From sequence record PZ172995.1: a DNA stretch of 64,000 nt; one strand, given 5' to 3'. The notes below the pieces were generated by a model. It saw nothing but the letters and a program-made list of their open reading frames with translations. It was not told the DNA's origin and did no database searches. The position numbers were made by a program, and so were the translations under genes. The DNA comes from a phage. Position 1 is the stretch's first letter; each line of letters opens with the position of its first letter. This document shows, in pieces, positions 11,381-33,737 of the stretch.

Positions 11381-11457
11381 CTCTGTTTAGCTCAGCTTGG
11401 TAGAGCGTTCCGTTTGGGGCGGTAAGGCCGGAGGTTCAAGTCCTCCAACAGAGACCA
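11381..11457 (+). tRNA. tRNA-Pro (TGG)
   Basis: Hand-folded cloverleaf: acceptor CTCTGTT/AACAGAG, anticodon loop TTTGGGG, T-arm GGAGG-TTCAAGT-CCTCC, CCA encoded. Confidence 0.75.
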
Positions 11458-11464
11458 AATTAAT

Positions 11465-11542
11465 GTTCCAGTAGACAAAACGGTAAAGTCACCACTCTTT
11501 CAAAGTGGATATTTGAGGGTTCAAATCCCTTCTGGAACGCCA
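11465..11542 (+). tRNA. tRNA-Glu (TTC)
   Basis: Acceptor GTTCCAG/CTGGAAC, anticodon stem CCACT/AGTGG with loop CTTTCAA, T-loop TTCAAAT, CCA encoded. Confidence 0.75.
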
Positions 11543-11547
11543 GTTTT

Positions 11548-11623
11548 GACAGAAGACCAATTACAGCAAACTTAATCTACTCATCTGACACGAAATCGGA
11601 CAAAGAAGATATTTGGTCTGGTC
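11548..11623 (+). ncRNA. conserved hairpin element, copy 1 (basal stem CAGAAGACC / GGTCTGG, loop with CAGCAA)
   Basis: GACAGAAGACCA pairs with TGGTCTGGTC around a loop of about 50 nt; same stem in three further copies. Confidence 0.5.
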
Positions 11624-11632
11624 ATTAAGAAT

Positions 11633-11709
11633 TGCGGGTATAGAGAAAGGGCGTCTCACATGTCTCATTAGCATGGTATCGGCAGGTTCGACTCCTGCAC
11701 CCGCCTCCA
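11633..11709 (+). tRNA. tRNA-Met (CAT), irregular acceptor stem
   Basis: D-stem GAGA/TCTC, anticodon stem CATGT/GCATG with loop CTCATTA, T-arm GCAGG-TTCGACT-CCTGC; acceptor pairing imperfect. Confidence 0.55.
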
Positions 11710-11714
11710 ATTTT

Positions 11715-11778
11715 GCAGAAGACCGTATGCAGCAACAAACTACTTTTTTTGCGGATAAAAGAAAAAACACGGTCTGGC
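11715..11778 (+). ncRNA. conserved hairpin element, copy 2
   Basis: GCAGAAGACCG ... CAGCAA ... CGGTCTGGC. Confidence 0.5.
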
Positions 11779-11788
11779 AATATATTAA

Positions 11789-11865
11789 GGTTAGGAAGCA
11801 CATAAGGTATGTGCGGTCGCCTGTTAAGCGAATGGCACAGGGTTCGAATCCCTGACTAACCGCCA
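11789..11865 (+). tRNA. tRNA-Asn (GTT)
   Basis: D-stem GCAC/GTGC, anticodon loop CTGTTAA, T-arm CAGGG-TTCGAAT-CCCTG, CCA encoded. Confidence 0.7.
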
Positions 11866-11874
11866 AATTTAAAT

Positions 11875-11962
11875 GTGTCGTTATCCCGTAGATGGTAGCG
11901 GTGGGGACTGTAAATCCCTTGTCATTGAGACTCGGTAGGTTCGACTCCTACACGGCACACCA
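11875..11962 (+). tRNA. tRNA-Tyr (GTA), long variable arm
   Basis: Acceptor GTGTCGT/ACGGCAC, anticodon loop CTGTAAA, long variable arm, T-arm GTAGG-TTCGACT-CCTAC, CCA encoded. Confidence 0.7.
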
Positions 11963-11968
11963 AATAAA

Positions 11969-12046
11969 GGTTATGTAGTTTAATCTGGTTAAAATACTCC
12001 CCTGTCACGGGAGATGATGAGGGTTCAAATCCCTTCGTAACCGCCA
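11969..12046 (+). tRNA. tRNA-Asp (GTC)
   Basis: Anticodon stem CTCCC/GGGAG with loop CTGTCAC, T-arm GAGGG-TTCAAAT-CCCTT, CCA encoded. Confidence 0.8.
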
Positions 12047-12129
12047 AATTATAATAAGTATTTCAAAATGATGTTTGAGAGGGCTATTTAGCCCCTCCCT
12101 TAAAGAGTTCTTACGAGTATTCTTTAAAG

Positions 12130-12212
12130 GAGCAGAAGACCAAATTCAGCAAGTACGTATGATATTTTCAAGCCAATTTAATTTTGAAAAAATTTAAAAC
12201 TTGGTCTGGCTC
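12130..12212 (+). ncRNA. conserved hairpin element, copy 3
   Basis: GAGCAGAAGACCAA pairs with TTGGTCTGGCTC; loop contains CAGCAA. Confidence 0.5.
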
Positions 12213-12221
12213 AACAAATTT

Positions 12222-12357
12222 ACAGAAGACCGTTTACAGCAAAACTTAAACAATCTATTTCTCCGGTAAAGAAAAGGCGAAGGTTCGATTCCTTCACTCG
12301 GCAGATGTCGAGTTGGTGTAATGGTAGCACTTAAGATGACAAACAACGGTCTGGTAA
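12222..12357 (+). ncRNA. conserved hairpin element, copy 4, enclosing a tRNA-like module (T-arm hairpin, acceptor-like hairpin, D-arm-like hairpin); candidate Y-RNA-like RNA
   Basis: Basal stem ACAGAAGACCGTT / AACGGTCTGGTA; inside: GAAGG-TTCGATT-CCTTC (12279-12295), ACTCGGC-AGAT-GTCGAGT (12296-12313), GTGT-AATGGTA-GCAC (12316-12330). Confidence 0.45.
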
Positions 12358-12503
12358 TTATCTTTGTAGGTGAGCTATTAAGCTTACTTGTGAGTATGCG
12401 ACCACAAAGGGTGAAAGGGCAAATTCTAGATTTAAACCCAACAAGGCACATCGCTACAGACCTTAAGCAAGTCTGGGTAGCTTATCTACAAAGATAATTT
12501 AAT

Positions 12504-12579
12504 GGAAGTGTAGCAGAATGGTGATGCGGCAGACTTTTAATCTGACAGGCGATGGGTTCGAATCCCTCCACTTCTACCA
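12504..12579 (+). tRNA. tRNA-Lys (TTT)
   Basis: Acceptor GGAAGTG/CACTTCT, anticodon loop CTTTTAA, T-loop TTCGAAT, CCA encoded; paralogous to the Lys(CTT) tRNA at 13820. Confidence 0.7.
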
Positions 12580-12583
12580 ATAT

Positions 12584-12660
12584 GGTTCAGTCGCAGATAA
12601 GGTAATGCAGGGGTCTCATAAGCCCTATGAATGTGGGTTCGATTCCCATCTGAACCTCCA
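12584..12660 (+). tRNA. tRNA with CAT anticodon (Met or lysidine-Ile)
   Basis: Acceptor GGTTCAG/CTGAACC, anticodon loop CTCATAA, T-arm GTGGG-TTCGATT-CCCAT, CCA encoded. Confidence 0.7.
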
Positions 12661-12661
12661 A

Positions 12662-12737
12662 GCTGGTATAGTTAAGAAGGTTATAACACTCCCCTGATAA
12701 GGGAATATCGGTGGTTCGATTCCACCTACCAGTACCA
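12662..12737 (+). tRNA. tRNA-Ile (GAT)
   Basis: D-stem GTTA/TAAC, anticodon loop CTGATAA, T-arm GGTGG-TTCGATT-CCACC, CCA encoded. Confidence 0.75.
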
Positions 12738-12752
12738 ATTTCAATAAAGTTG

Positions 12753-12781
12753 TTGACATTGATATGTGACTATTTTATAGT
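12753..12781 (+). promoter_or_regulatory. sigma70-like promoter (TTGACA, 17 nt, TATAGT) inside the tRNA array
   Basis: TTGACA 12753-12758, TATAGT 12776-12781; downstream about 300 nt has no tRNA or ORF. Confidence 0.55.
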
Positions 12782-12832
12782 AACTGAAAATGATTCAGCA
12801 TATGTATAATTCAAACACCAATACATGAGCGT

Positions 12833-12904
12833 TAGACGTAACACAATGTGGGGAAATTTGTTGTACATATTCTGAATAGTTTTCGTTGCGTAGCGTCTAT
12901 TTTG
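12833..12904 (+). terminator. putative structured element ending in a T-run (possible sRNA 3' end)
   Basis: TAGACG ... CGTCTA stem enclosing about 55 nt, followed by TTTTGC. Confidence 0.3.
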
Positions 12905-13074
12905 CAAATTTAAAATAAATGCAAACGACAATGTTTTTCTGGCAGTAGCTTGATAGGCTAAACACCAGTGAGGTCTTCCAATCCCTCATCAAAGAATTTG
13001 GCGTACTAGCCCACGGTATGATTAATAAGGTGGGCATCTTTAAGGGCTTTCTAAGAGAGTCTTTAAAGATTAAT

Positions 13075-13151
13075 GCACCCTTAGTTCAATTGGATAGAGC
13101 AACGGTCTTCTAAATCGTTAGTTACAGGTTCGAATCCTGTAGGGTGTGCCA
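13075..13151 (+). tRNA. tRNA-Arg (TCT)
   Basis: Acceptor GCACCCT/AGGGTGT, anticodon loop CTTCTAA, T-arm ACAGG-TTCGAAT-CCTGT, CCA encoded. Confidence 0.75.
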
Positions 13152-13293
13152 AATAGTTAGCAGATTGCTTAGACGACCTTATCGGGTCTCCGCGTAAGGA
13201 GGTGGTCTGTATCTCATGTTTTCCAGAACATGTAAATAATCTGAGAAGGGGCTTTACAGTGTTGCGAAAATACGGTAAGCTTCGAATTATAGT

Positions 13294-13376
13294 GTGGGAC
13301 GATGTTAAGACTCTAAGGCATGAGCAACGGCCTCCAAAACCGTTTCAAAGGGGTTCAACTCCTCCGTCCCATGCCA
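13294..13376 (+). tRNA. tRNA-Trp (CCA)-like, atypical length and D-region
   Basis: Acceptor GTGGGAC/GTCCCAT, anticodon loop CTCCAAA, T-loop TTCAACT, CCA encoded; about 7 nt longer than canonical. Confidence 0.45.
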
Positions 13377-13389
13377 AAGTCTTATTAGG

Positions 13390-13477
13390 GGTAGGTAGCG
13401 GCTAATGGCAGCCAAACAGTCTTGAAAACTGTTGCAACTGTAGAGATACGGTGAGGGTTCGACTCCTTTACTTACCA
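13390..13477 (+). tRNA. tRNA-Ser (TGA), long variable arm
   Basis: Acceptor GGTAGGT/ACTTACC, anticodon stem ACAGT/ACTGT with loop CTTGAAA, variable arm about 20 nt, T-loop TTCGACT. Confidence 0.7.
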
Positions 13478-13634
13478 CCTAATAAGATTTTACACCGTCC
13501 ATGCTTGCTCGCATTTTCGGTTTATCCCTCGTGTATTGTCGTACACACTGATAAAGCACCTAGTAGGTGTCACGGAGAAGAGATAATATCAAGCTCTCCA
13601 AAGGTTCTAGTCACCGGATTAAACAAGACTATGC

Positions 13635-13656
13635 AAAGACCAATTTAGGTCTTTTT
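13635..13656 (+). terminator. putative Rho-independent terminator
   Basis: AAAGACC-AATTTA-GGTCTTT followed by TTT. Confidence 0.45.
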
Positions 13657-13735
13657 AGAGGGCTTCTAAGGTTATTACAGCTTGTTGTGGAACCTTGTTG
13701 CTTAGGTTCTTAGAAGTTCTCTAAAAAGATTTAAT

Positions 13736-13812
13736 GCACCTATAGCCCAACTGGTAGAGGCAGCAGACTTAGAATCTGCTCAGTGTGAGTTCGAATCTCT
13801 CTAGGTGTACCA
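13736..13812 (+). tRNA. tRNA with TAG anticodon (Leu by anticodon), short variable arm
   Basis: Acceptor GCACCTA/TAGGTGT, anticodon stem GCAGA/TCTGC with loop CTTAGAA, T-loop TTCGAAT, A73, CCA encoded. Confidence 0.65.
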
Positions 13813-13819
13813 AATTAAT

Positions 13820-13895
13820 GCAGGTGTAGCAAAATGGTTATGCGGCTGACTCTTAATCAGTAAGACGATGGGTTCAATTCCCTCCACCTGTACCA
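13820..13895 (+). tRNA. tRNA-Lys (CTT)
   Basis: Acceptor GCAGGTG/CACCTGT, anticodon loop CTCTTAA, T-loop TTCAATT, CCA encoded. Confidence 0.7.
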
Positions 13896-13901
13896 AACAT
13901 T

Positions 13902-13977
13902 GGGGTCATAGTTTATATGGTTAAAATTCGAGTTTTGCAAACTTGGGAACTGAGTTCAATTCTCAGTGACTCCACCA
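13902..13977 (+). tRNA. tRNA-Ala (TGC)
   Basis: Acceptor GGGGTCA/TGACTCC, anticodon loop TTTGCAA, T-arm CTGAG-TTCAATT-CTCAG, CCA encoded. Confidence 0.7.
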
Positions 13978-13983
13978 ATTAGT

Positions 13984-14058
13984 GCATCCATAGTTTAAAC
14001 GGGAAAATTACAGTCTTCCAAACTGAGGTTGAGGGTTCGATTCCCTCTGGATGCTCCA
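13984..14058 (+). tRNA. tRNA-Gly (TCC)
   Basis: Acceptor GCATCCA/TGGATGC, anticodon loop CTTCCAA, T-loop TTCGATT, CCA encoded. Confidence 0.75.
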
Positions 14059-14065
14059 AATTAAT

Positions 14066-14141
14066 GCTCCTATCGTATAATTGGCTATTACGGTTGCCTT
14101 GTAAGTAACTTATCAGGGTTCGAATCCTTGTGGGAGCACCA
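14066..14141 (+). tRNA. tRNA-Thr (TGT)
   Basis: Acceptor GCTCCTA/TGGGAGC, anticodon loop CTTGTAA, T-arm CAGGG-TTCGAAT-CCTTG, CCA encoded. Confidence 0.7.
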
Positions 14142-14238
14142 ATTTAGAGGTCAAGTGAAAGACCGCTTTGAGTCAACTGAAGACCGTAACAAATCCCACG
14201 GAGTTGAGTTAGCGGCACAACTTCAGACCTCTTTCCAC

Positions 14239-14313
14239 ACTCGCTTAGTTTATATGGTAAAACATCACCCTTACAAGATGAAGAAAAAGGTTCAAGTCCT
14301 TTAGTGAGTACCA
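14239..14313 (+). tRNA. tRNA-Val (TAC)
   Basis: D-stem GTTT/AAAC, anticodon loop CTTACAA, T-arm AAAGG-TTCAAGT-CCTTT, CCA encoded. Confidence 0.7.
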
Positions 14314-14314
14314 T

Positions 14315-14392
14315 GTTCCAGTATCCCAATTGGCAGAGGATGCAAGCTCAAACCTTGCACTAGTGACGGTTCGAATCCGTCTTGGAACACCA
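14315..14392 (+). tRNA. tRNA with CAA anticodon (Leu by anticodon), short variable arm
   Basis: Acceptor GTTCCAG/TTGGAAC, anticodon stem GCAAG/CTTGC with loop CTCAAAC, T-arm GACGG-TTCGAAT-CCGTC, A73, CCA encoded. Confidence 0.65.
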
Positions 14393-14397
14393 ATTTT

Positions 14398-14473
14398 GCA
14401 GGATTAGTTCAAATGGATAGAGCAACAGTCTACGAAGCTGTTAATAGGGGTTCGAGTCCCTTATCCTGCGCCA
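14398..14473 (+). tRNA. tRNA-Arg (ACG)
   Basis: Acceptor GCAGGAT/ATCCTGC, anticodon loop CTACGAA, T-loop TTCGAGT, CCA encoded. Confidence 0.75.
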
Positions 14474-14491
14474 GATAAGTAAGAGTGATTT

Positions 14492-14734
14492 ATGCAAACA
14501 TTAATCGTCGTTGAACATGAAAATTCCAATAGCATTGAGTTTGTAAGGGTTCCCACTATAGATACCCACATTTTCTTGAAAGTAGGCTGGGAATGTGACC
14601 CAATAAGAGTAGAAAAATTTATTGGTCATTACTTTGGTGGAAGACAACTTAAAAGTGTTAATTTTGAGACAATGTTACCAGAAAACTCAGAAACAAATAA
14701 TAATGTTTACCTCCTTACAAGGATTAGACAATGA
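14492..14734 (+). CDS. hypothetical protein encoded inside the tRNA array
   Basis: ORF with RBS; ATGA overlap with the next gene. Confidence 0.5.
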   Translation: MQTLIVVEHENSNSIEFVRVPTIDTHIFLKVGWECDPIRVEKFIGHYFGGRQLKSVNFETMLPENSETNNNVYLLTRIRQ

Positions 14735-15288
14735 GATATTTGAAGTATGTTTCATGGATTTTCTTAGCTTTGCTAGAGCCATTTGCAGCAATCTTAGCAG
14801 TCATCTTAGCACCTTTTGTAGTTCTATTCTACAGTGAGAAGAGAGGACACTTACCTTTCGGCTTCAGATGGATGGAAACATATGATAACCCAATTGATGG
14901 TGATAAAGGTCATGTCGAACGATGGGCTAAGATTAGAAAGATTGGTAAGCTTGGTATCTATATGCAGAGAGTTGGTTGGCTCTGGAGAAACAAAGCTTAT
15001 AACTTCTCTTACCATGTGTTAGGAAGAGATGTAAAAGATGTTACTAAGTGGAAAGGTAATATCAATGTAAGTTCTAACCCTGAAGATAATCAGACAGGTT
15101 ATCTCCTAATGTGGAACAGTAATGCTTGGGGATTATTCGCTTTTATCCCATCAATTAAACTCTTTGGTAAGCAATTCTACTGGAGAATTTATGTTGGATG
15201 GAAACTTAAAAGTGTTGTTCCAAAAGAAAGAGCATTCTCAAGGGAAAGAGTTATGTTGGCATTCTTTATTCATCCACTGAGAAAGTAA
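14731..15288 (+). CDS. hypothetical Trp-rich membrane protein encoded inside the tRNA array
   Basis: N-terminal hydrophobic helix WIFLALLEPFAAILAVILAPFVVLF in the 185-aa translation. Confidence 0.6.
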   Translation: MRYLKYVSWIFLALLEPFAAILAVILAPFVVLFYSEKRGHLPFGFRWMETYDNPIDGDKGHVERWAKIRKIGKLGIYMQRVGWLWRNKAYNFSYHVLGRDVKDVTKWKGNINVSSNPEDNQTGYLLMWNSNAWGLFAFIPSIKLFGKQFYWRIYVGWKLKSVVPKERAFSRERVMLAFFIHPLRK

Positions 15289-15296
15289 AGATTTAA

Positions 15297-15372
15297 AGGG
15301 GATTAGTTTACAAGGTTAAAACCTCGGTCTTTGAAATCGAAGAAGTTGGTTCAATTCCAACATCCCCCGCCA
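15297..15372 (+). tRNA. tRNA-Gln (TTG)
   Basis: Anticodon stem TCGGT/ATCGA with loop CTTTGAA, T-arm GTTGG-TTCAATT-CCAAC, CCA encoded. Confidence 0.7.
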
Positions 15373-15374
15373 AT

Positions 15375-15453
15375 GCTCCATTACTCCAATTGGCAGAGAG
15401 GCCAGACTTAAAATCTGTGTTATGTATCGGTTCGAATCCGATATGGAGTACCA
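15375..15453 (+). tRNA. tRNA with TAA anticodon (Leu by anticodon), short variable arm
   Basis: Acceptor GCTCCAT/ATGGAGT, anticodon loop CTTAAAA, T-arm ATCGG-TTCGAAT-CCGAT, A73, CCA encoded. Confidence 0.65.
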
Positions 15454-15458
15454 AATTT

Positions 15459-15534
15459 AGCGGTATAGCATAACTGGCAATGCAGCAGTCTCTGAAGCTG
15501 TCTTATTAAGGTTCAAATCCTTATGCCGCTGCCA
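15459..15534 (+). tRNA. tRNA-Gln (CTG)
   Basis: D-stem GCAT/ATGC, anticodon loop CTCTGAA, T-arm TAAGG-TTCAAAT-CCTTA, CCA encoded. Confidence 0.7.
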
Positions 15535-15565
15535 CTTCTAAGGATTCTTACGAGAGTCCTTAAAT

Positions 15566-15641
15566 GTGGCCTTATCATAAATGGTAATGACCCATGCTGT
15601 GAACATGGTCTATACGGGTTCAAATCCCGTAGGTCACCCCA
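15566..15641 (+). tRNA. tRNA-His (GTG)
   Basis: D-stem TCAT/ATGA, anticodon stem CCATG/CATGG with loop CTGTGAA, T-arm ACGGG-TTCAAAT-CCCGT, CCA encoded. Confidence 0.75.
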
Positions 15642-15646
15642 ATTTA

Positions 15647-15723
15647 TAGTCCAAGTAGCTTATATGGTTAAAGCGCGTGTCTGAAAAACATGAGAAGAGG
15701 GTTCAAATCCCACTGGACTACCA
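15647..15723 (+). tRNA. tRNA-Phe (GAA)
   Basis: Acceptor TAGTCCA/TGGACTA, anticodon stem CGTGT/ACATG with loop CTGAAAA, T-loop TTCAAAT; linker lengths slightly irregular. Confidence 0.65.
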
Positions 15724-15739
15724 ATTTCAAAGGTGCTTA

Positions 15740-16474
15740 ATGAAAGAGATGACAGGACAAGGTAAGGAGATTTTTAATCTCTTAAAAACCGGTAGAGGGT
15801 TTTCTAATCCCCTTATTACTGGTGCAGCAGTTCTCGGTGGAACCGTAGCTGCCTCTACATCACTTGTAAGCTCTATTAGCTCTGTAACAGACCCTACAAT
15901 AAAGGATAAACTTGTTGCCGCTGGACTTACAACAGTTCTGCTTAACAGCTTTACAACGAGTCTGACAAGCACTACATCCACCACTAAGACATTGACAGAT
16001 TACGGTCAAAAATCAATTGATGAGTTTTCATCACGTATGCAGGTAGCAAAAGGATATTCCAATGTTATGGGTGCAGCAGGAGAGCAAGTTGGTTGTACAC
16101 CATTTAGTGGTATTATGGGTGTTGCTACAGAATATGGTCAAAAAGCTATTGACACGATTAACAACACGTTAGACAGTGTTAACGGCGTGTTAAGTGACTT
16201 ACAGGATGCTATTGATAAAGGTCTTGATACTGTTTCTGATTTAGCTAACCAAGCTGTTAGCAAGATTAATGAAGGTATCTCGAAGATTACAGCTTATGCA
16301 GATGAAGTTGTGCAGATGATTGAAGAAGAAGCTGCCCTTATTGCAGAGTACCTTAAAACGAATATCAATGGGTTCTTAGCAGGTATTTTACCAGACTGGT
16401 TTGATGATGCTTGTAAAACTGGTGTGATTGACACTATTGCAACACCAGAAATGAAGAACGCATTACAGAAATAA
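15740..16474 (+). CDS. hypothetical Ser/Thr-rich protein encoded inside the tRNA array
   Basis: Track start 15677 lies inside tRNA-Phe; ATG at 15740 has AAAGGTG RBS; low-complexity S/T region then a helical C-terminal half. Confidence 0.6.
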   Translation: MKEMTGQGKEIFNLLKTGRGFSNPLITGAAVLGGTVAASTSLVSSISSVTDPTIKDKLVAAGLTTVLLNSFTTSLTSTTSTTKTLTDYGQKSIDEFSSRMQVAKGYSNVMGAAGEQVGCTPFSGIMGVATEYGQKAIDTINNTLDSVNGVLSDLQDAIDKGLDTVSDLANQAVSKINEGISKITAYADEVVQMIEEEAALIAEYLKTNINGFLAGILPDWFDDACKTGVIDTIATPEMKNALQK

Positions 16475-16475
16475 T

Positions 16476-16568
16476 GGAAGATTAACCCTAAAAGGTAAGG
16501 GAGCAGTTTGCTAAACTGCCAGTAGCTGAGAAATCGGTGTACCAGTTCAAGTCTGGTATCTTCCCCCA
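16476..16568 (+). tRNA. tRNA-Ser (GCT), long variable arm
   Basis: Acceptor GGAAGAT/ATCTTCC, anticodon stem GCAGT/ACTGC with loop TTGCTAA, variable arm about 21 nt, T-arm ACCAG-TTCAAGT-CTGGT, CCA encoded. Confidence 0.75.
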
Positions 16569-16572
16569 ATTT

Positions 16573-16648
16573 GAATCCGTGACAGAAATGGCTATGTGCC
16601 TGTCTGCAAAACAGGTTTATAAGGGTTCGAGTCCCTTCGGATTCTCCA
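16573..16648 (+). tRNA. tRNA-Cys (GCA)
   Basis: Acceptor GAATCCG/CGGATTC, anticodon stem CCTGT/ACAGG with loop CTGCAAA, T-arm AAGGG-TTCGAGT-CCCTT, CCA encoded. Confidence 0.8.
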
Positions 16649-25821: not shown

Positions 25822-27174
25822 ATGTGGAATCCAATTGTTAATGTAGATATTACATTGAACACCGCAGGAACTACAAGAGAAGGTTTTGGGCTACCACTAT
25901 TTTTAGCTTCAACAGATAACTTTGAAGAAAGAGTCCGTGGTTACACTTCCTTAACTGAAGTTGCTGAAGATTTCGATGAAAATTCTGCTGCATATAAGGC
26001 TGCTAAACAACTTTGGAGTCAGACTCCTAAAGTAACTCAGCTTTATATTGGTAGACGTGCTATGCAGTACACTGTGTCAATTCCTGACTCTGTTACTGAA
26101 AGTACCGATTATTCTTTAACTGTAGCTGTTAGAGGTGGAGTTTCTCAACCATTCCAGTACACTTCACAGTCAGAAGATACTGCTGAGAAGGTGTTACAGC
26201 AGCTTAAAACACAGATTGAAGCAGAACCTTCTGTAAAAGACCTTGTTACTGTCAATGTAACTGGTACTGGTGGTTCAGCAACAATGGTAATCACCAAAGC
26301 TGGTGACAACGACTTCGTGAAGGTTACTACTACAGCACAAACAGTGTCAATTGCAAGTACAACTGCTGACACGGCATCGACTGCTCTGGCAGCTATTGAA
26401 GCTTATTCAACTGACTGGTATTTCATTGCAGCAGAAGACAGAACTCAACAGTTTGTCTTAGCAATGGCTTCTGAGATTCAAGCTCGCAAGAAGATTTTCT
26501 TTACAGCTAACTCCGATGTAGCAGCACTGCAAGGTACAGAATTAGCTAGTGCAAATGATGTTCCAGCACAACTTGCTAAGAATAAATACACTCGTACAGT
26601 TTGCTTGTGGCATCACACAGCAGCAGAAGACTATCCAGAAATGGCATACATTGCTTATGGTGCTCCATATGATGCAGGTTCAATTGCTTGGGGTAACGCA
26701 CAGTTAACTGGCGTAGCTGCTTCTCTACAGCCATCTAATCAGAGACCTCTGACAAGTATTCAGAAGTCAGCTTTAGATGCACGTCACTGTAACTTCATTG
26801 ACCTTGATGGTGGTGTTCCAGTGGTTCGTAGAGGGATTACTTCTGGTGGGGAATGGATTGATATCATTCGTGGTGTTGACTGGTTAGAATCAGACCTGAA
26901 AACTTCTCTGAGAGACTTGCTAATTAACCAGAAGGGTGGTAAGATTACTTATGATGATACTGGTATTACCCGTATTCGTCAAGTCATTGAAACCTCTCTA
27001 CAAAGAGCAGTCAACAGAAACTTCCTGTCATCTTACACAGTTAATGTTCCTAAAGCCTCTCAAGTTGCTTTAGCAGACAAGAAAGCTCGTATCCTGAAAG
27101 ATGTTACCTTCGCAGGTATCTTAGCAGGGGCTATCTTGGATGTTGACTTGAAAGGTACAGTGGCTTACGAATAA
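25822..27174 (+). CDS. tail sheath protein (putative)
   Basis: 450-aa protein directly followed by a 148-aa tube-like protein, a terminator, a chaperone pair and tape measure: canonical contractile-tail gene order. Confidence 0.6.
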   Translation: MWNPIVNVDITLNTAGTTREGFGLPLFLASTDNFEERVRGYTSLTEVAEDFDENSAAYKAAKQLWSQTPKVTQLYIGRRAMQYTVSIPDSVTESTDYSLTVAVRGGVSQPFQYTSQSEDTAEKVLQQLKTQIEAEPSVKDLVTVNVTGTGGSATMVITKAGDNDFVKVTTTAQTVSIASTTADTASTALAAIEAYSTDWYFIAAEDRTQQFVLAMASEIQARKKIFFTANSDVAALQGTELASANDVPAQLAKNKYTRTVCLWHHTAAEDYPEMAYIAYGAPYDAGSIAWGNAQLTGVAASLQPSNQRPLTSIQKSALDARHCNFIDLDGGVPVVRRGITSGGEWIDIIRGVDWLESDLKTSLRDLLINQKGGKITYDDTGITRIRQVIETSLQRAVNRNFLSSYTVNVPKASQVALADKKARILKDVTFAGILAGAILDVDLKGTVAYE

Positions 27175-27189
27175 TAGAGGTAAATTGGA

Positions 27190-27636
27190 ATGGCTATGTA
27201 TCAGCAATATTCCCCTAAAGACGTTGTGTGTAGCTGGAATGGTATTGCCATTGAAGGCTTTGCCCCAGACTCATTTTTACGTCTACAGAGAACATCACCA
27301 CTTGTGACACCAGTTGTAGGTGCAGGTGGTCAAGTTGCTCTGACAAGAAATGCAGACAAGACAGGTACTATTGAGATTGAGCTAATGCAGACTTCTCTCT
27401 CTAATCAGATGCTTTCTGCAATTCAAGCTAAACAAGACAATATGGAACTTGAAGAAGATATCTCTTCTAACTTCGTAATCTACGACCCATCAGGCTCTGT
27501 TCTGGCAACTGGTATTAATGCTTGGTTGCAGGAACTACCACAGATTGAACTTGGTCGTGACCAGAACTCTAAAACTTGGATTTTTGGTTGTGAGAAGCTA
27601 GACTACACTTCTACAATTCCAGCGTCAAGTGTTTAA
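27190..27636 (+). CDS. tail tube protein (putative)
   Basis: 148-aa protein after sheath; synteny. Confidence 0.6.
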   Translation: MAMYQQYSPKDVVCSWNGIAIEGFAPDSFLRLQRTSPLVTPVVGAGGQVALTRNADKTGTIEIELMQTSLSNQMLSAIQAKQDNMELEEDISSNFVIYDPSGSVLATGINAWLQELPQIELGRDQNSKTWIFGCEKLDYTSTIPASSV

Positions 27637-27648
27637 TAAATCCTATAA

Positions 27649-27680
27649 GGGGGAGACTTTAAAAGGTCTTCCCCTTTTTT
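27649..27680 (+). terminator. Rho-independent terminator after sheath/tube genes
   Basis: GGGGGAGAC-loop-GTCTTCCCC followed by TTTTTT. Confidence 0.75.
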
Positions 27681-27709
27681 GTTTCTTTTAAAAGTATTAA
27701 GGAATCACA

Positions 27710-28108
27710 ATGAAAACAGAAGCTAGAGTAATTAATGGTAAGAAAGTAAATATCGTTCTGCTTGGGGCAAGAGATGGTATTAAGATGTCTATGAAGCTGG
27801 GTAAAATTGTTGTTCCAACCTTTGCACAGATGCTGTCAAGCCTGACTGATAAAGATAAGAAAGAAGCTCCAATGGTTCCATTTAAAGAACTTGTTGAAGC
27901 TTGTTTTGACAGAATTGAAGAAATTAACCTTGAAGAAATGGCTACCCTGTTATTTCAAGGGGCAACTGTTGATGACTTCCCACTTAATATTGATACATAC
28001 TTCCAAGCAAACTATGGTGAATTTATTGATTACTTAGCATTTGCGCTGGAGGCAAACTTCGGAAGTTTTTTCGAAGCAAGCATTTTCAAAAGCCTAACTT
28101 CTCAGTAA
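27710..28108 (+). CDS. tail assembly chaperone (G-like)
   Basis: Position between tube and tape measure; slippery TTTTTTC near 3' end. Confidence 0.6.
   Translation: MKTEARVINGKKVNIVLLGARDGIKMSMKLGKIVVPTFAQMLSSLTDKDKKEAPMVPFKELVEACFDRIEEINLEEMATLLFQGATVDDFPLNIDTYFQANYGEFIDYLAFALEANFGSFFEASIFKSLTSQ
28066..28072 (+). other. candidate -1 programmed ribosomal frameshift site (T_TTT_TTC)
   Basis: Heptamer in the zero frame of 27710..28108; the -1 frame runs open from here into 28111..28350. Confidence 0.55.
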
Positions 28109-28110
28109 AC

Positions 28111-28349
28111 ATGGGTAACACTCTACAGACACCACTAACTGATGCTGCTGTAGAGGCAACCTATGAAGAAGCAGACGAGATGAAATTTGTGCTTGCTATT
28201 TATGGTATGGAAGGGTGTAAAGAAACACTTGACCAACTCTTTGCTATGACATTCTCTGATTTATTATCATTGAGACAATTTCTTGAAATTCAGAGGTCGT
28301 ATAAAGAGGAAATTGCTTACAACGAACTTAGAAGAGCAGGAAAAATGTA

Positions 28350-28350
<1 letters not shown>
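28111..28350 (+). CDS. tail assembly chaperone extension (T-like; probably expressed as G-T fusion by -1 frameshift)
   Basis: -1 frame relative to upstream gene; no stop between slippery site and this ORF. Confidence 0.55.

Positions 28351-33737
<5,387 letters not shown>

Follow-up and report, generated by a model that had tools for sequence, protein, structure and literature searches.

In bacteriophage lambda, the tail assembly chaperones gpG and gpGT are made from two overlapping open reading frames (ORFs) by a −1 frameshift that was reportedly described by Levin, Hendrix and Casjens in 1993 and by Xu, Hendrix and Duda in 2004, 2013, and 2014. Lambda slips on the heptamer G_GGA_AAG with tRNA-Gly and tRNA-Lys. 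The contractile-tail phage P2 has a −1 shift in its chaperone gene (E/E+E') upstream of the tape measure gene, where the heptamer is the T-rich T_TTT_TTG. The efficiency of the P2 frameshift is 2-3 times that of lambda (PMC5009743). Among phages closer to the one studied here, a −1 frameshift was stated when the genomes of Moogle, Michonne, and Mijalis were announced (PMC4319497, PMC4591319, PMC5543628), and a 2025 paper on Pseudomonas phage Adele reported an invariant GTTTTT close to the 3' end of the short-form chaperone gene (TAC-N) in Vandenendeviridae and in 231 Andersonviridae, with a −1 frame that is unbroken as far as the tape measure gene and with elevated conservation of the nucleotides at the site (PMC12846349). 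Here we analyzed the corresponding locus in a 64,000-nucleotide stretch of phage DNA (sequence record PZ172995.1; hereafter the window), which comes from a Felixounavirus, a Felix O1-like myophage; Felixounavirus is a member of Andersonviridae. The locus consists of ORF1 (27710-28108) and ORF2 (28111-28350), and a preliminary description had proposed that the two are joined by a programmed −1 frameshift. We put the probability of this reading at about 0.85: judged from sequence, a programmed −1 ribosomal frameshift on T_TTT_TTC would yield a 213-amino-acid (aa) long chaperone beside a 132-aa short form.

The nearest of these described systems are the same as the window in all that matters. Salmonella phage Meda (Felixounavirus), whose DNA shares 98.5% identity with the window across 27190-28700, and the Citrobacter phages Moogle, Michonne, Mordin, and Mijalis (Mooglevirus) have the same gene pair, heptamer, and junction, and nothing of substance differs between their records and the window. 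A joined two-piece coding sequence named 'tape measure chaperone frameshift product' covers the same interval in the GenBank records of Meda (MH586731), Mijalis, and Mordin. The fusion produced by a shift at the heptamer is residue-for-residue AXY86324.1 for Meda, and it is identical to ARB06563.1/AIW03804.1/YP_009145710.1 for Mijalis/Moogle and to ALA06885.1/AKU44019.1/YP_009177317.1 for Mordin/Michonne. Most Felixounavirus records keep two separate genes, and the records closest to the window, such as that of ZX4221, annotate two hypothetical proteins. The Adele paper, which is centred on Pakpunavirus, reached the same conclusion from comparative genomics (PMC12846349); new here beyond that paper are the Vequintavirinae and Myoalterovirus loci, the missing starts, the missing Shine-Dalgarno (SD) sequence, and a test of codon choice at Phe-Phe dipeptides. 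With lambda G/GT, the locus shares the placement of two overlapping ORFs between the major tail protein and tape measure genes, the open −1 overlap, a phased heptamer, its conservation, and weak or missing initiation signals for ORF2. Unlike lambda, which is a siphovirus, the window phage is a myovirus that would slip on U_UUU_UUC with tRNA-Phe at both sites, and the Pfam family of ORF1, Phage_TAC_15, differs from the TAC family of lambda. P2 resembles the locus in its contractile tail, in the −1 shift within a chaperone gene ahead of the tape measure gene, and in the T-rich heptamer.

The heptamer T_TTT_TTC occupies positions 28066-28072 on the plus strand in the X_XXY_YYZ phase of ORF1, with base 28066 at the third position of an ORF1 codon (zero-frame context ...GGA AGT TTT TTC GAA GCA...), and ORF1 has no other phased heptamer. 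It spans Phe120-Phe121, and its TTC is codon 121 of 132, followed by 11 sense codons and the stop. ORF2 is in the −1 frame relative to ORF1. The final upstream stop of this frame is at 28027-28029; from 28030 onward it reads through to its stop at 28348-28350, which gives an overlap with ORF1 of 79 nt. The predicted fusion, join(27710..28072, 28072..28350), comprises 121 + 92 = 213 aa, with the junction sequence ...ANFGSFF-RSKHFQKPNFSVN... and RSKHFQ... as the −1 reading beyond the heptamer. Direct reading of the sequence thus bore out the preliminary description in the coordinates and phase of the heptamer, in its position 12 codons before the ORF1 stop (11 sense codons plus the stop), in the open −1 frame leading from it into ORF2 (no stop from 28030 up to the one at 28348-28350), and in the length of the fusion, which had been given as roughly 213 aa.

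The slip site was conserved in two sets of relatives. The GenBank set held 14 loci from six groups: Felixounavirus (Meda, ekra, and BPS15Q2), Mooglevirus (Mijalis, Sf17, and Mordin), Suspvirus (mistaenkt), other Ounavirinae or Ounavirinae-like phages (Yersinia phage P778, Erwinia phiEa21-4, 'Listeria' phage LPML1, and Pectobacterium Wc4-1), and the more remote Alteromonas PT11-V22 (Myoalterovirus) and UPEC06 and PBES02 (rV5-like Vequintavirinae). Identity of their fusion proteins to that of the window ranged from 84% down to 25%; the Erwinia, Pectobacterium, Yersinia, LPML1, Alteromonas, and rV5-like members were at 25-49%, with the lowest values (~25-28%) in the rV5-like and Alteromonas phages. 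At all 14 loci, a phased TTTTTTC (TTTTTTT in Alteromonas) is present at the homologous Phe-Phe within the −1 overlap, and the −1 frame continues for 70-89 codons past the ORF1 stop, reaching the tape measure start or ending a few tens of bases short of it. Residues N116, F120, and F121 are invariant in the protein alignment, and the first −1 residue, R122, is nearly so. The second set consisted of 35 IMG/VR loci found by the motif DxYFxGNYGE, 20 residues upstream of the slip site; because this search pattern lies outside the slip site, the retrieval was unbiased toward the heptamer. Every one of the 35 has a phased TTTTTTC/T and a −1 extension of 80-99 codons. The two sets appear to overlap in part (EC6, AYO145A, and PT11-V22) and are not fully independent; combined, they keep TTTTTTC or TTTTTTT in 49 of 49 loci of Ounavirinae, Vequintavirinae, and Myoalterovirus. 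The preliminary description had named a lack of conservation of the heptamer in relatives, in combination with detection of only the two separate products, as grounds against its reading; both sets showed conservation (14/14 and 35/35).

The host labels of two public records in this clade are doubtful, because the clade otherwise infects Enterobacterales. OK283618.1, 'Listeria phage LPML1', is an Ounavirinae genome under a Listeria label, and WP_252560994.1, a Felixounavirus chaperone, is filed under 'Staphylococcus hyicus'; both look like misassigned hosts or contamination.

Taken alone, the occurrence of a heptamer was unimpressive. The 68 putative genes of the window contain 64 phased X_XXY_YYZ heptamers in 17,549 codons, and the chance of finding one in the 26-codon overlap is ~0.09. 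However, only 1 of these 64 is a TTTTTTN, and it is the slip site. The −1 frame is open for 92 codons after the slip site, compared to 39 codons for the runner-up and <10 codons for most of the others. Likewise, a single Phe-Phe dipeptide among the 19 in window genes is coded NNT-TTT-TTY, again at the slip site, and 14 of the remaining dipeptides begin with TTC. Since the heptamer is conserved in all relatives examined, chance is ruled out as its explanation.

Nucleotide comparisons pointed to the same short region. When the 641-nt query was compared by blastn to Erwinia phages, whose chaperone protein is only ~40% identical to that of the window, the sole match was query 346-386, corresponding to window positions 28055-28095, at 92.7% identity. 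Sliding identity across seven genus-level representatives peaked at 0.87-0.91 in intervals centred at 28062-28080, and identity to the four most distant relatives peaked at 0.93 centred at 28073-28074, compared to a locus mean of 0.54. In 23 unique Felixounavirus sequences, 28066-28110 contained no variable sites, 47 of the 59 variable sites in ORF1 were at third positions, and 5 of the 6 in ORF2 were at third positions of the −1 frame. This third-position bias in both ORFs implies that both frames are read as protein, and it demonstrates, at the level of sequence comparison, purifying selection in both frames. The conserved island could be explained by dual coding alone, because in a −1 overlap a base at the wobble position of one frame serves the other as a first or second position. 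Within Felixounavirus, ORF2 (28111-28347) had 6 variable columns in 237 nt compared to 59 in 320 nt for ORF1 (27710-28029), synonymous sites included; this low variability of ORF2 could result from mosaic recombination or from extra RNA constraints.

Gene identities and gene order agreed with the earlier assignment of a tail-chaperone gene pair ahead of the tape measure gene. ORF1 matched Pfam PF21822, Phage_TAC_15 (E 1.2e-19; 71.5 bits compared to a gathering cut-off of 22), with residues 9-124 aligned to profile positions 1-124 of 127, and it matched PHROG 1613 (E 3e-48) and PHROG 3840 (E 4e-43), both of which are labeled 'tail assembly chaperone'. ORF2 matched PHROG 4963, with the same label, from end to end (1-79 on 1-79 of 79; E 2.8e-55). 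PHROG 3840 crosses the junction: residues 1-151 of the fusion aligned to profile positions 6-157 of 158, which is a longer alignment than that of ORF1 alone. The order of genes is sheath, tube, terminator, ORF1, ORF2, and tape measure.

In the mechanism that we propose, most ribosomes would finish ORF1 at its TAA stop codon and release the 132-aa short chaperone, as homology suggests. In a minority of cases, tRNA-Phe(GAA) in the P site (UUU) and in the A site (UUC) would slip back by one base on U_UUU_UUC and re-pair with UUU_UUU, C28072 would be read twice, and translation would then continue through CGA AGC AAG and onward to 28348-28350. The product would be the 213-aa long form, whose last 92 residues, to go by the sequence and its relatives, would be a 'T-like' domain. 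By analogy to lambda (PMC5009743), the N-terminal part shared by both forms may coat the tape measure protein, the product of the gene that follows, and the rare long form may recruit the tail tube protein through its extension; both forms would be needed for tail assembly and would be missing from virions, and a fixed, low rate of frameshifting would set the ratio of long to short form. The window also carries a cluster of 26 tRNA genes (11381-16648), including one for tRNA-Phe(GAA) (15648-15723), the species that reads both slip codons. A listed GTG ORF (15677-16474) overlaps this tRNA-Phe gene, and its true start is probably further downstream.

Several observations weigh against the programmed ribosomal frameshift, and they concern the RNA around the slip site, the homopolymer within it, the start codon of ORF2, and the proteins detected in a relative. 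The preliminary description had called for a check for a downstream stimulatory structure, and none was found near the site. In the window, folds of 28073-28112, 28073-28140, 28073-28180, and 28040-28140, compared with shuffled sequence, showed neither a stable hairpin nor a stable pseudoknot 5-9 nt past the heptamer (minimum free energies of −2.3 kcal/mol for 28073-28112 and −3.4 kcal/mol for 28073-28140; z 0 to +1). RNAalifold gave zero consensus pairs in nine relatives, and six relatives folded singly gave z values of −1.3 to +0.6, none of which was significant. An SD-like GGAGG at 28048-28052, 13 nt 5' of the heptamer, doubles as conserved Leu-Glu-Ala codons; Felixounavirus, Mooglevirus, and Wc4-1 have it, but it is not conserved in distant relatives, being lost or degraded in the Yersinia and Erwinia phages and in LPML1. 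In dnaX, an SD-like element at such spacing stimulates −1 shifting, but the downstream stem-loop of dnaX is not matched here.

Two other RNA structures were rejected. A hairpin that contains the heptamer (CUUCGGAA with UUUCGAAG) consists of complementary Glu and Phe codons and is not conserved. A second hairpin at ~28124-28152, with an outer helix that pairs 28110-28116 with 28159-28165 (z = −1.9 for the window fold), is kept in Felixounavirus, Mooglevirus, and Suspvirus, where four pairs show compensatory changes (six sequences); its core is CUCUACAG with CUGUAGAG in the window and CAG-ACCCC with GGGG-CUG in Mooglevirus and Suspvirus. This hairpin was rejected as a stimulator because its outer helix lies 38 nt and its core ~52 nt past the heptamer, which is too distant to meet a ribosome on the slip site, and because the wider set of relatives lacks it. 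It spans the start codon of ORF2 along with its initial 18 codons, and it might occlude the ORF2 start. Lambda G/GT is not known to depend on a defined RNA structure, and in the window the entire signal seems to consist of the heptamer plus the strongly conserved linear sequence beside it, with RNA structure apparently not needed.

The T6 homopolymer (28066-28071; T7 in the Alteromonas group) is kept in every relative, and RNA polymerase could add an extra U on it, in which case normal translation of a minority of mRNA would give the same 213-aa protein. Productive slippage of bacterial RNA polymerase usually takes ~8-9 or more identical bases, compared to which T6 is short. Transcriptional slippage would account for the lack of a downstream structure of the type that often stimulates ribosomal shifting, and a form assisted by a stem-loop has been described (PMC5009743); a terminator scan of the locus picked a weak hairpin at 28046-28062, ahead of the T run. 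However, this 'terminator-like' stem has only 4-6 weak pairs, which come from complementarity between Glu (GAR) and Phe (UUC) codons, and it was rejected because it is not kept in relatives. Moreover, the T run stands in the exact X_XXY_YYZ phase with a Z base that lets tRNA-Phe re-pair, and the precedents at the same gene position in lambda, P2, and other phages are ribosomal (PMC5009743). We therefore regard polymerase slippage as very improbable and favor slippage of the ribosome.

In Felixounavirus, an ATG lies 2 nt past the ORF1 stop (TAA AC ATG), and some independent synthesis of ORF2 by termination-reinitiation may occur in this genus. In its full form, this alternative holds that the locus encodes two separate proteins with no functional frameshift, that ORF2 is translated from ATG 28111 by termination-reinitiation, and that the heptamer is incidental Ser-Phe-Phe coding; it is in keeping with the two genes annotated in most GenBank records, with the ~0.09 chance of a phased heptamer in the overlap, and with the mass spectrometry of Sf14 particles considered below. 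However, no SD sequence was found before ATG 28111, where the anti-SD duplex has a free energy of +0.7 kcal/mol compared to a median of −5.8 kcal/mol for 61 window genes, only 3% of which are as weak. Nor does the −1 frame contain an ATG, GTG, or TTG around the ORF1 stop in Erwinia Ea21-4, LPML1, Wc4-1, PT11-V22, UPEC06, or PBES02. In these six phages, the first possible start comes well after conserved residues of the T part, such as CPRTEAAVDEGY and CPITDDAVKRTY, which are aligned with TPLTDAAVEATY. The lack of a usable start in six diverged phages implies that the conserved T-part residues can be expressed only by a change of frame. In addition, the −1 frame is always open past the heptamer, and the synonymous codon choices that make the heptamer are kept in 49 of 49 loci, whereas Phe-Phe elsewhere in the genome is coded in non-slippery form. 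Two separate proteins without a frameshift are accordingly, in our judgment, extremely unlikely.

At the protein level, the literature on Felix O1-like or rV5-like phages yielded no direct detection of the fusion protein or of its junction peptide, and no reporter data were found for the clade. Mass spectrometry of particles of Shigella phage Sf14 (Mooglevirus), prepared as a crude pelleted lysate, detected gp42 but not gp41 (PMC11821841). Comparison confirmed gp41 and gp42 as the homologues of ORF1 and ORF2, respectively; the supplementary files of the Sf14 paper mention neither protein. Detection of gp42 peptides implies that the −1-frame ORF is translated, but it does not tell by which route, and gp42 without gp41 is unexpected from an intact fusion alone. 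This result sits oddly with a T part made solely as a C-terminal extension of gp41, and it is odd also given that lambda gpG and gpGT are both missing from mature virions (PMC5009743). This absence of the lambda chaperones from virions, together with the length of the predicted tryptic junction peptide (IEEINLEE...ANFGSFFR; 54 residues), makes virion mass spectrometry poorly suited as a test of the frameshift. Another predicted tryptic peptide, HFQKPNFSVNMGNTLQTPLTDAAVEATYEEADEMK, is read in the −1 frame, and its first 10 residues are coded 5' of ATG 28111. When the PDB was searched with a profile of the fusion alignment, matches were at chance level only (E of at least 0.13), and no solved structure of a sequence relative was found. 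It is conceivable, though we consider it rather unlikely, that dual coding is not the sole reason for the conservation of CGAAGCAAGCAUUUUCAAAA (28073-28092) and that it acts as an unstructured, sequence-specific stimulator of −1 shifting on U_UUU_UUC. A second, separate conceivable reading, suggested by the Sf14 mass spectrometry, is that the T part, alone or processed, may stay in the particle, unlike lambda gpGT.

The features of the locus and of its neighborhood are collected in Table 1. Comparison of 27190-28700 with GenBank gave 295 matching records, nearly all of them Felixounavirus and other Ounavirinae, with Escherichia phage ZX4221 as the nearest (99.5% identity). An SD-like AAGGA precedes ORF1 (duplex −6.1 kcal/mol), and the ATG of the tape measure gene shares bases with the stop of the −1 extension (TAATG). 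In the cryo-EM structure of Sf14, the tail tube is gp40, the homologue of the tube gene (PMC11821841). The homologue of the hairpin at 27647-27676 carries the label 'terminator' in the Meda, Mijalis, and Mordin records, and with such a terminator the chaperone and tape measure genes would be transcribed less than the sheath and tube genes.

Table 1. Coordinates of the chaperone locus and neighboring features in the window.
Feature	Coordinates	Strand	Evidence
Tail sheath gene	25822..27174	+	PHROG 205 E 3e-125; Pfam DUF3383
Tail tube gene	27190..27636	+	Pfam KPP10_Orf10 E 3e-7; PHROG 280 virion structural protein E 1e-47
Strong intrinsic-terminator-like hairpin in the tube/chaperone gap	27647..27676	+	13-bp stem with 6 G-C pairs, then TTTTGTTTCT (T run)
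Tail assembly chaperone short form (TAC-N, 'G-like'), 132 aa, zero-frame product	27710..28108	+	Pfam PF21822; PHROG 1613/3840
Slippery heptamer T_TTT_TTC	28066..28072	+	Phase, uniqueness, conservation
Predicted −1 extension (TAC-C, 'T-like'), 92 codons plus stop; ORF2 plus 13 codons 5' of its ATG	28072..28350	+	PHROG 4963; open frame
Most conserved nucleotides of the locus, CGAAGCAAGCATTTTCAAAA, directly 3' of the heptamer; dual-coding	28073..28092	+	blastn; sliding identity; variable sites
Tape measure protein gene	28350..30581	+	PHROG 4036 full length E 0; Pfam TMP_3 E 2e-17

Thus, we conclude that the frameshift site is a real feature, correctly interpreted, that annotations and publications on close relatives already cover. 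For this reason the site is an ordinary one, and it leaves what is known of tail assembly unchanged. The joined 213-aa product should be annotated where most Felixounavirus records list two hypothetical proteins. The site is a clean natural example of slippage on U_UUU_UUC without evident RNA structure, and, since its conservation extends from Ounavirinae to Vequintavirinae and Myoalterovirus, it could be a simple model for structure-independent frameshifting.

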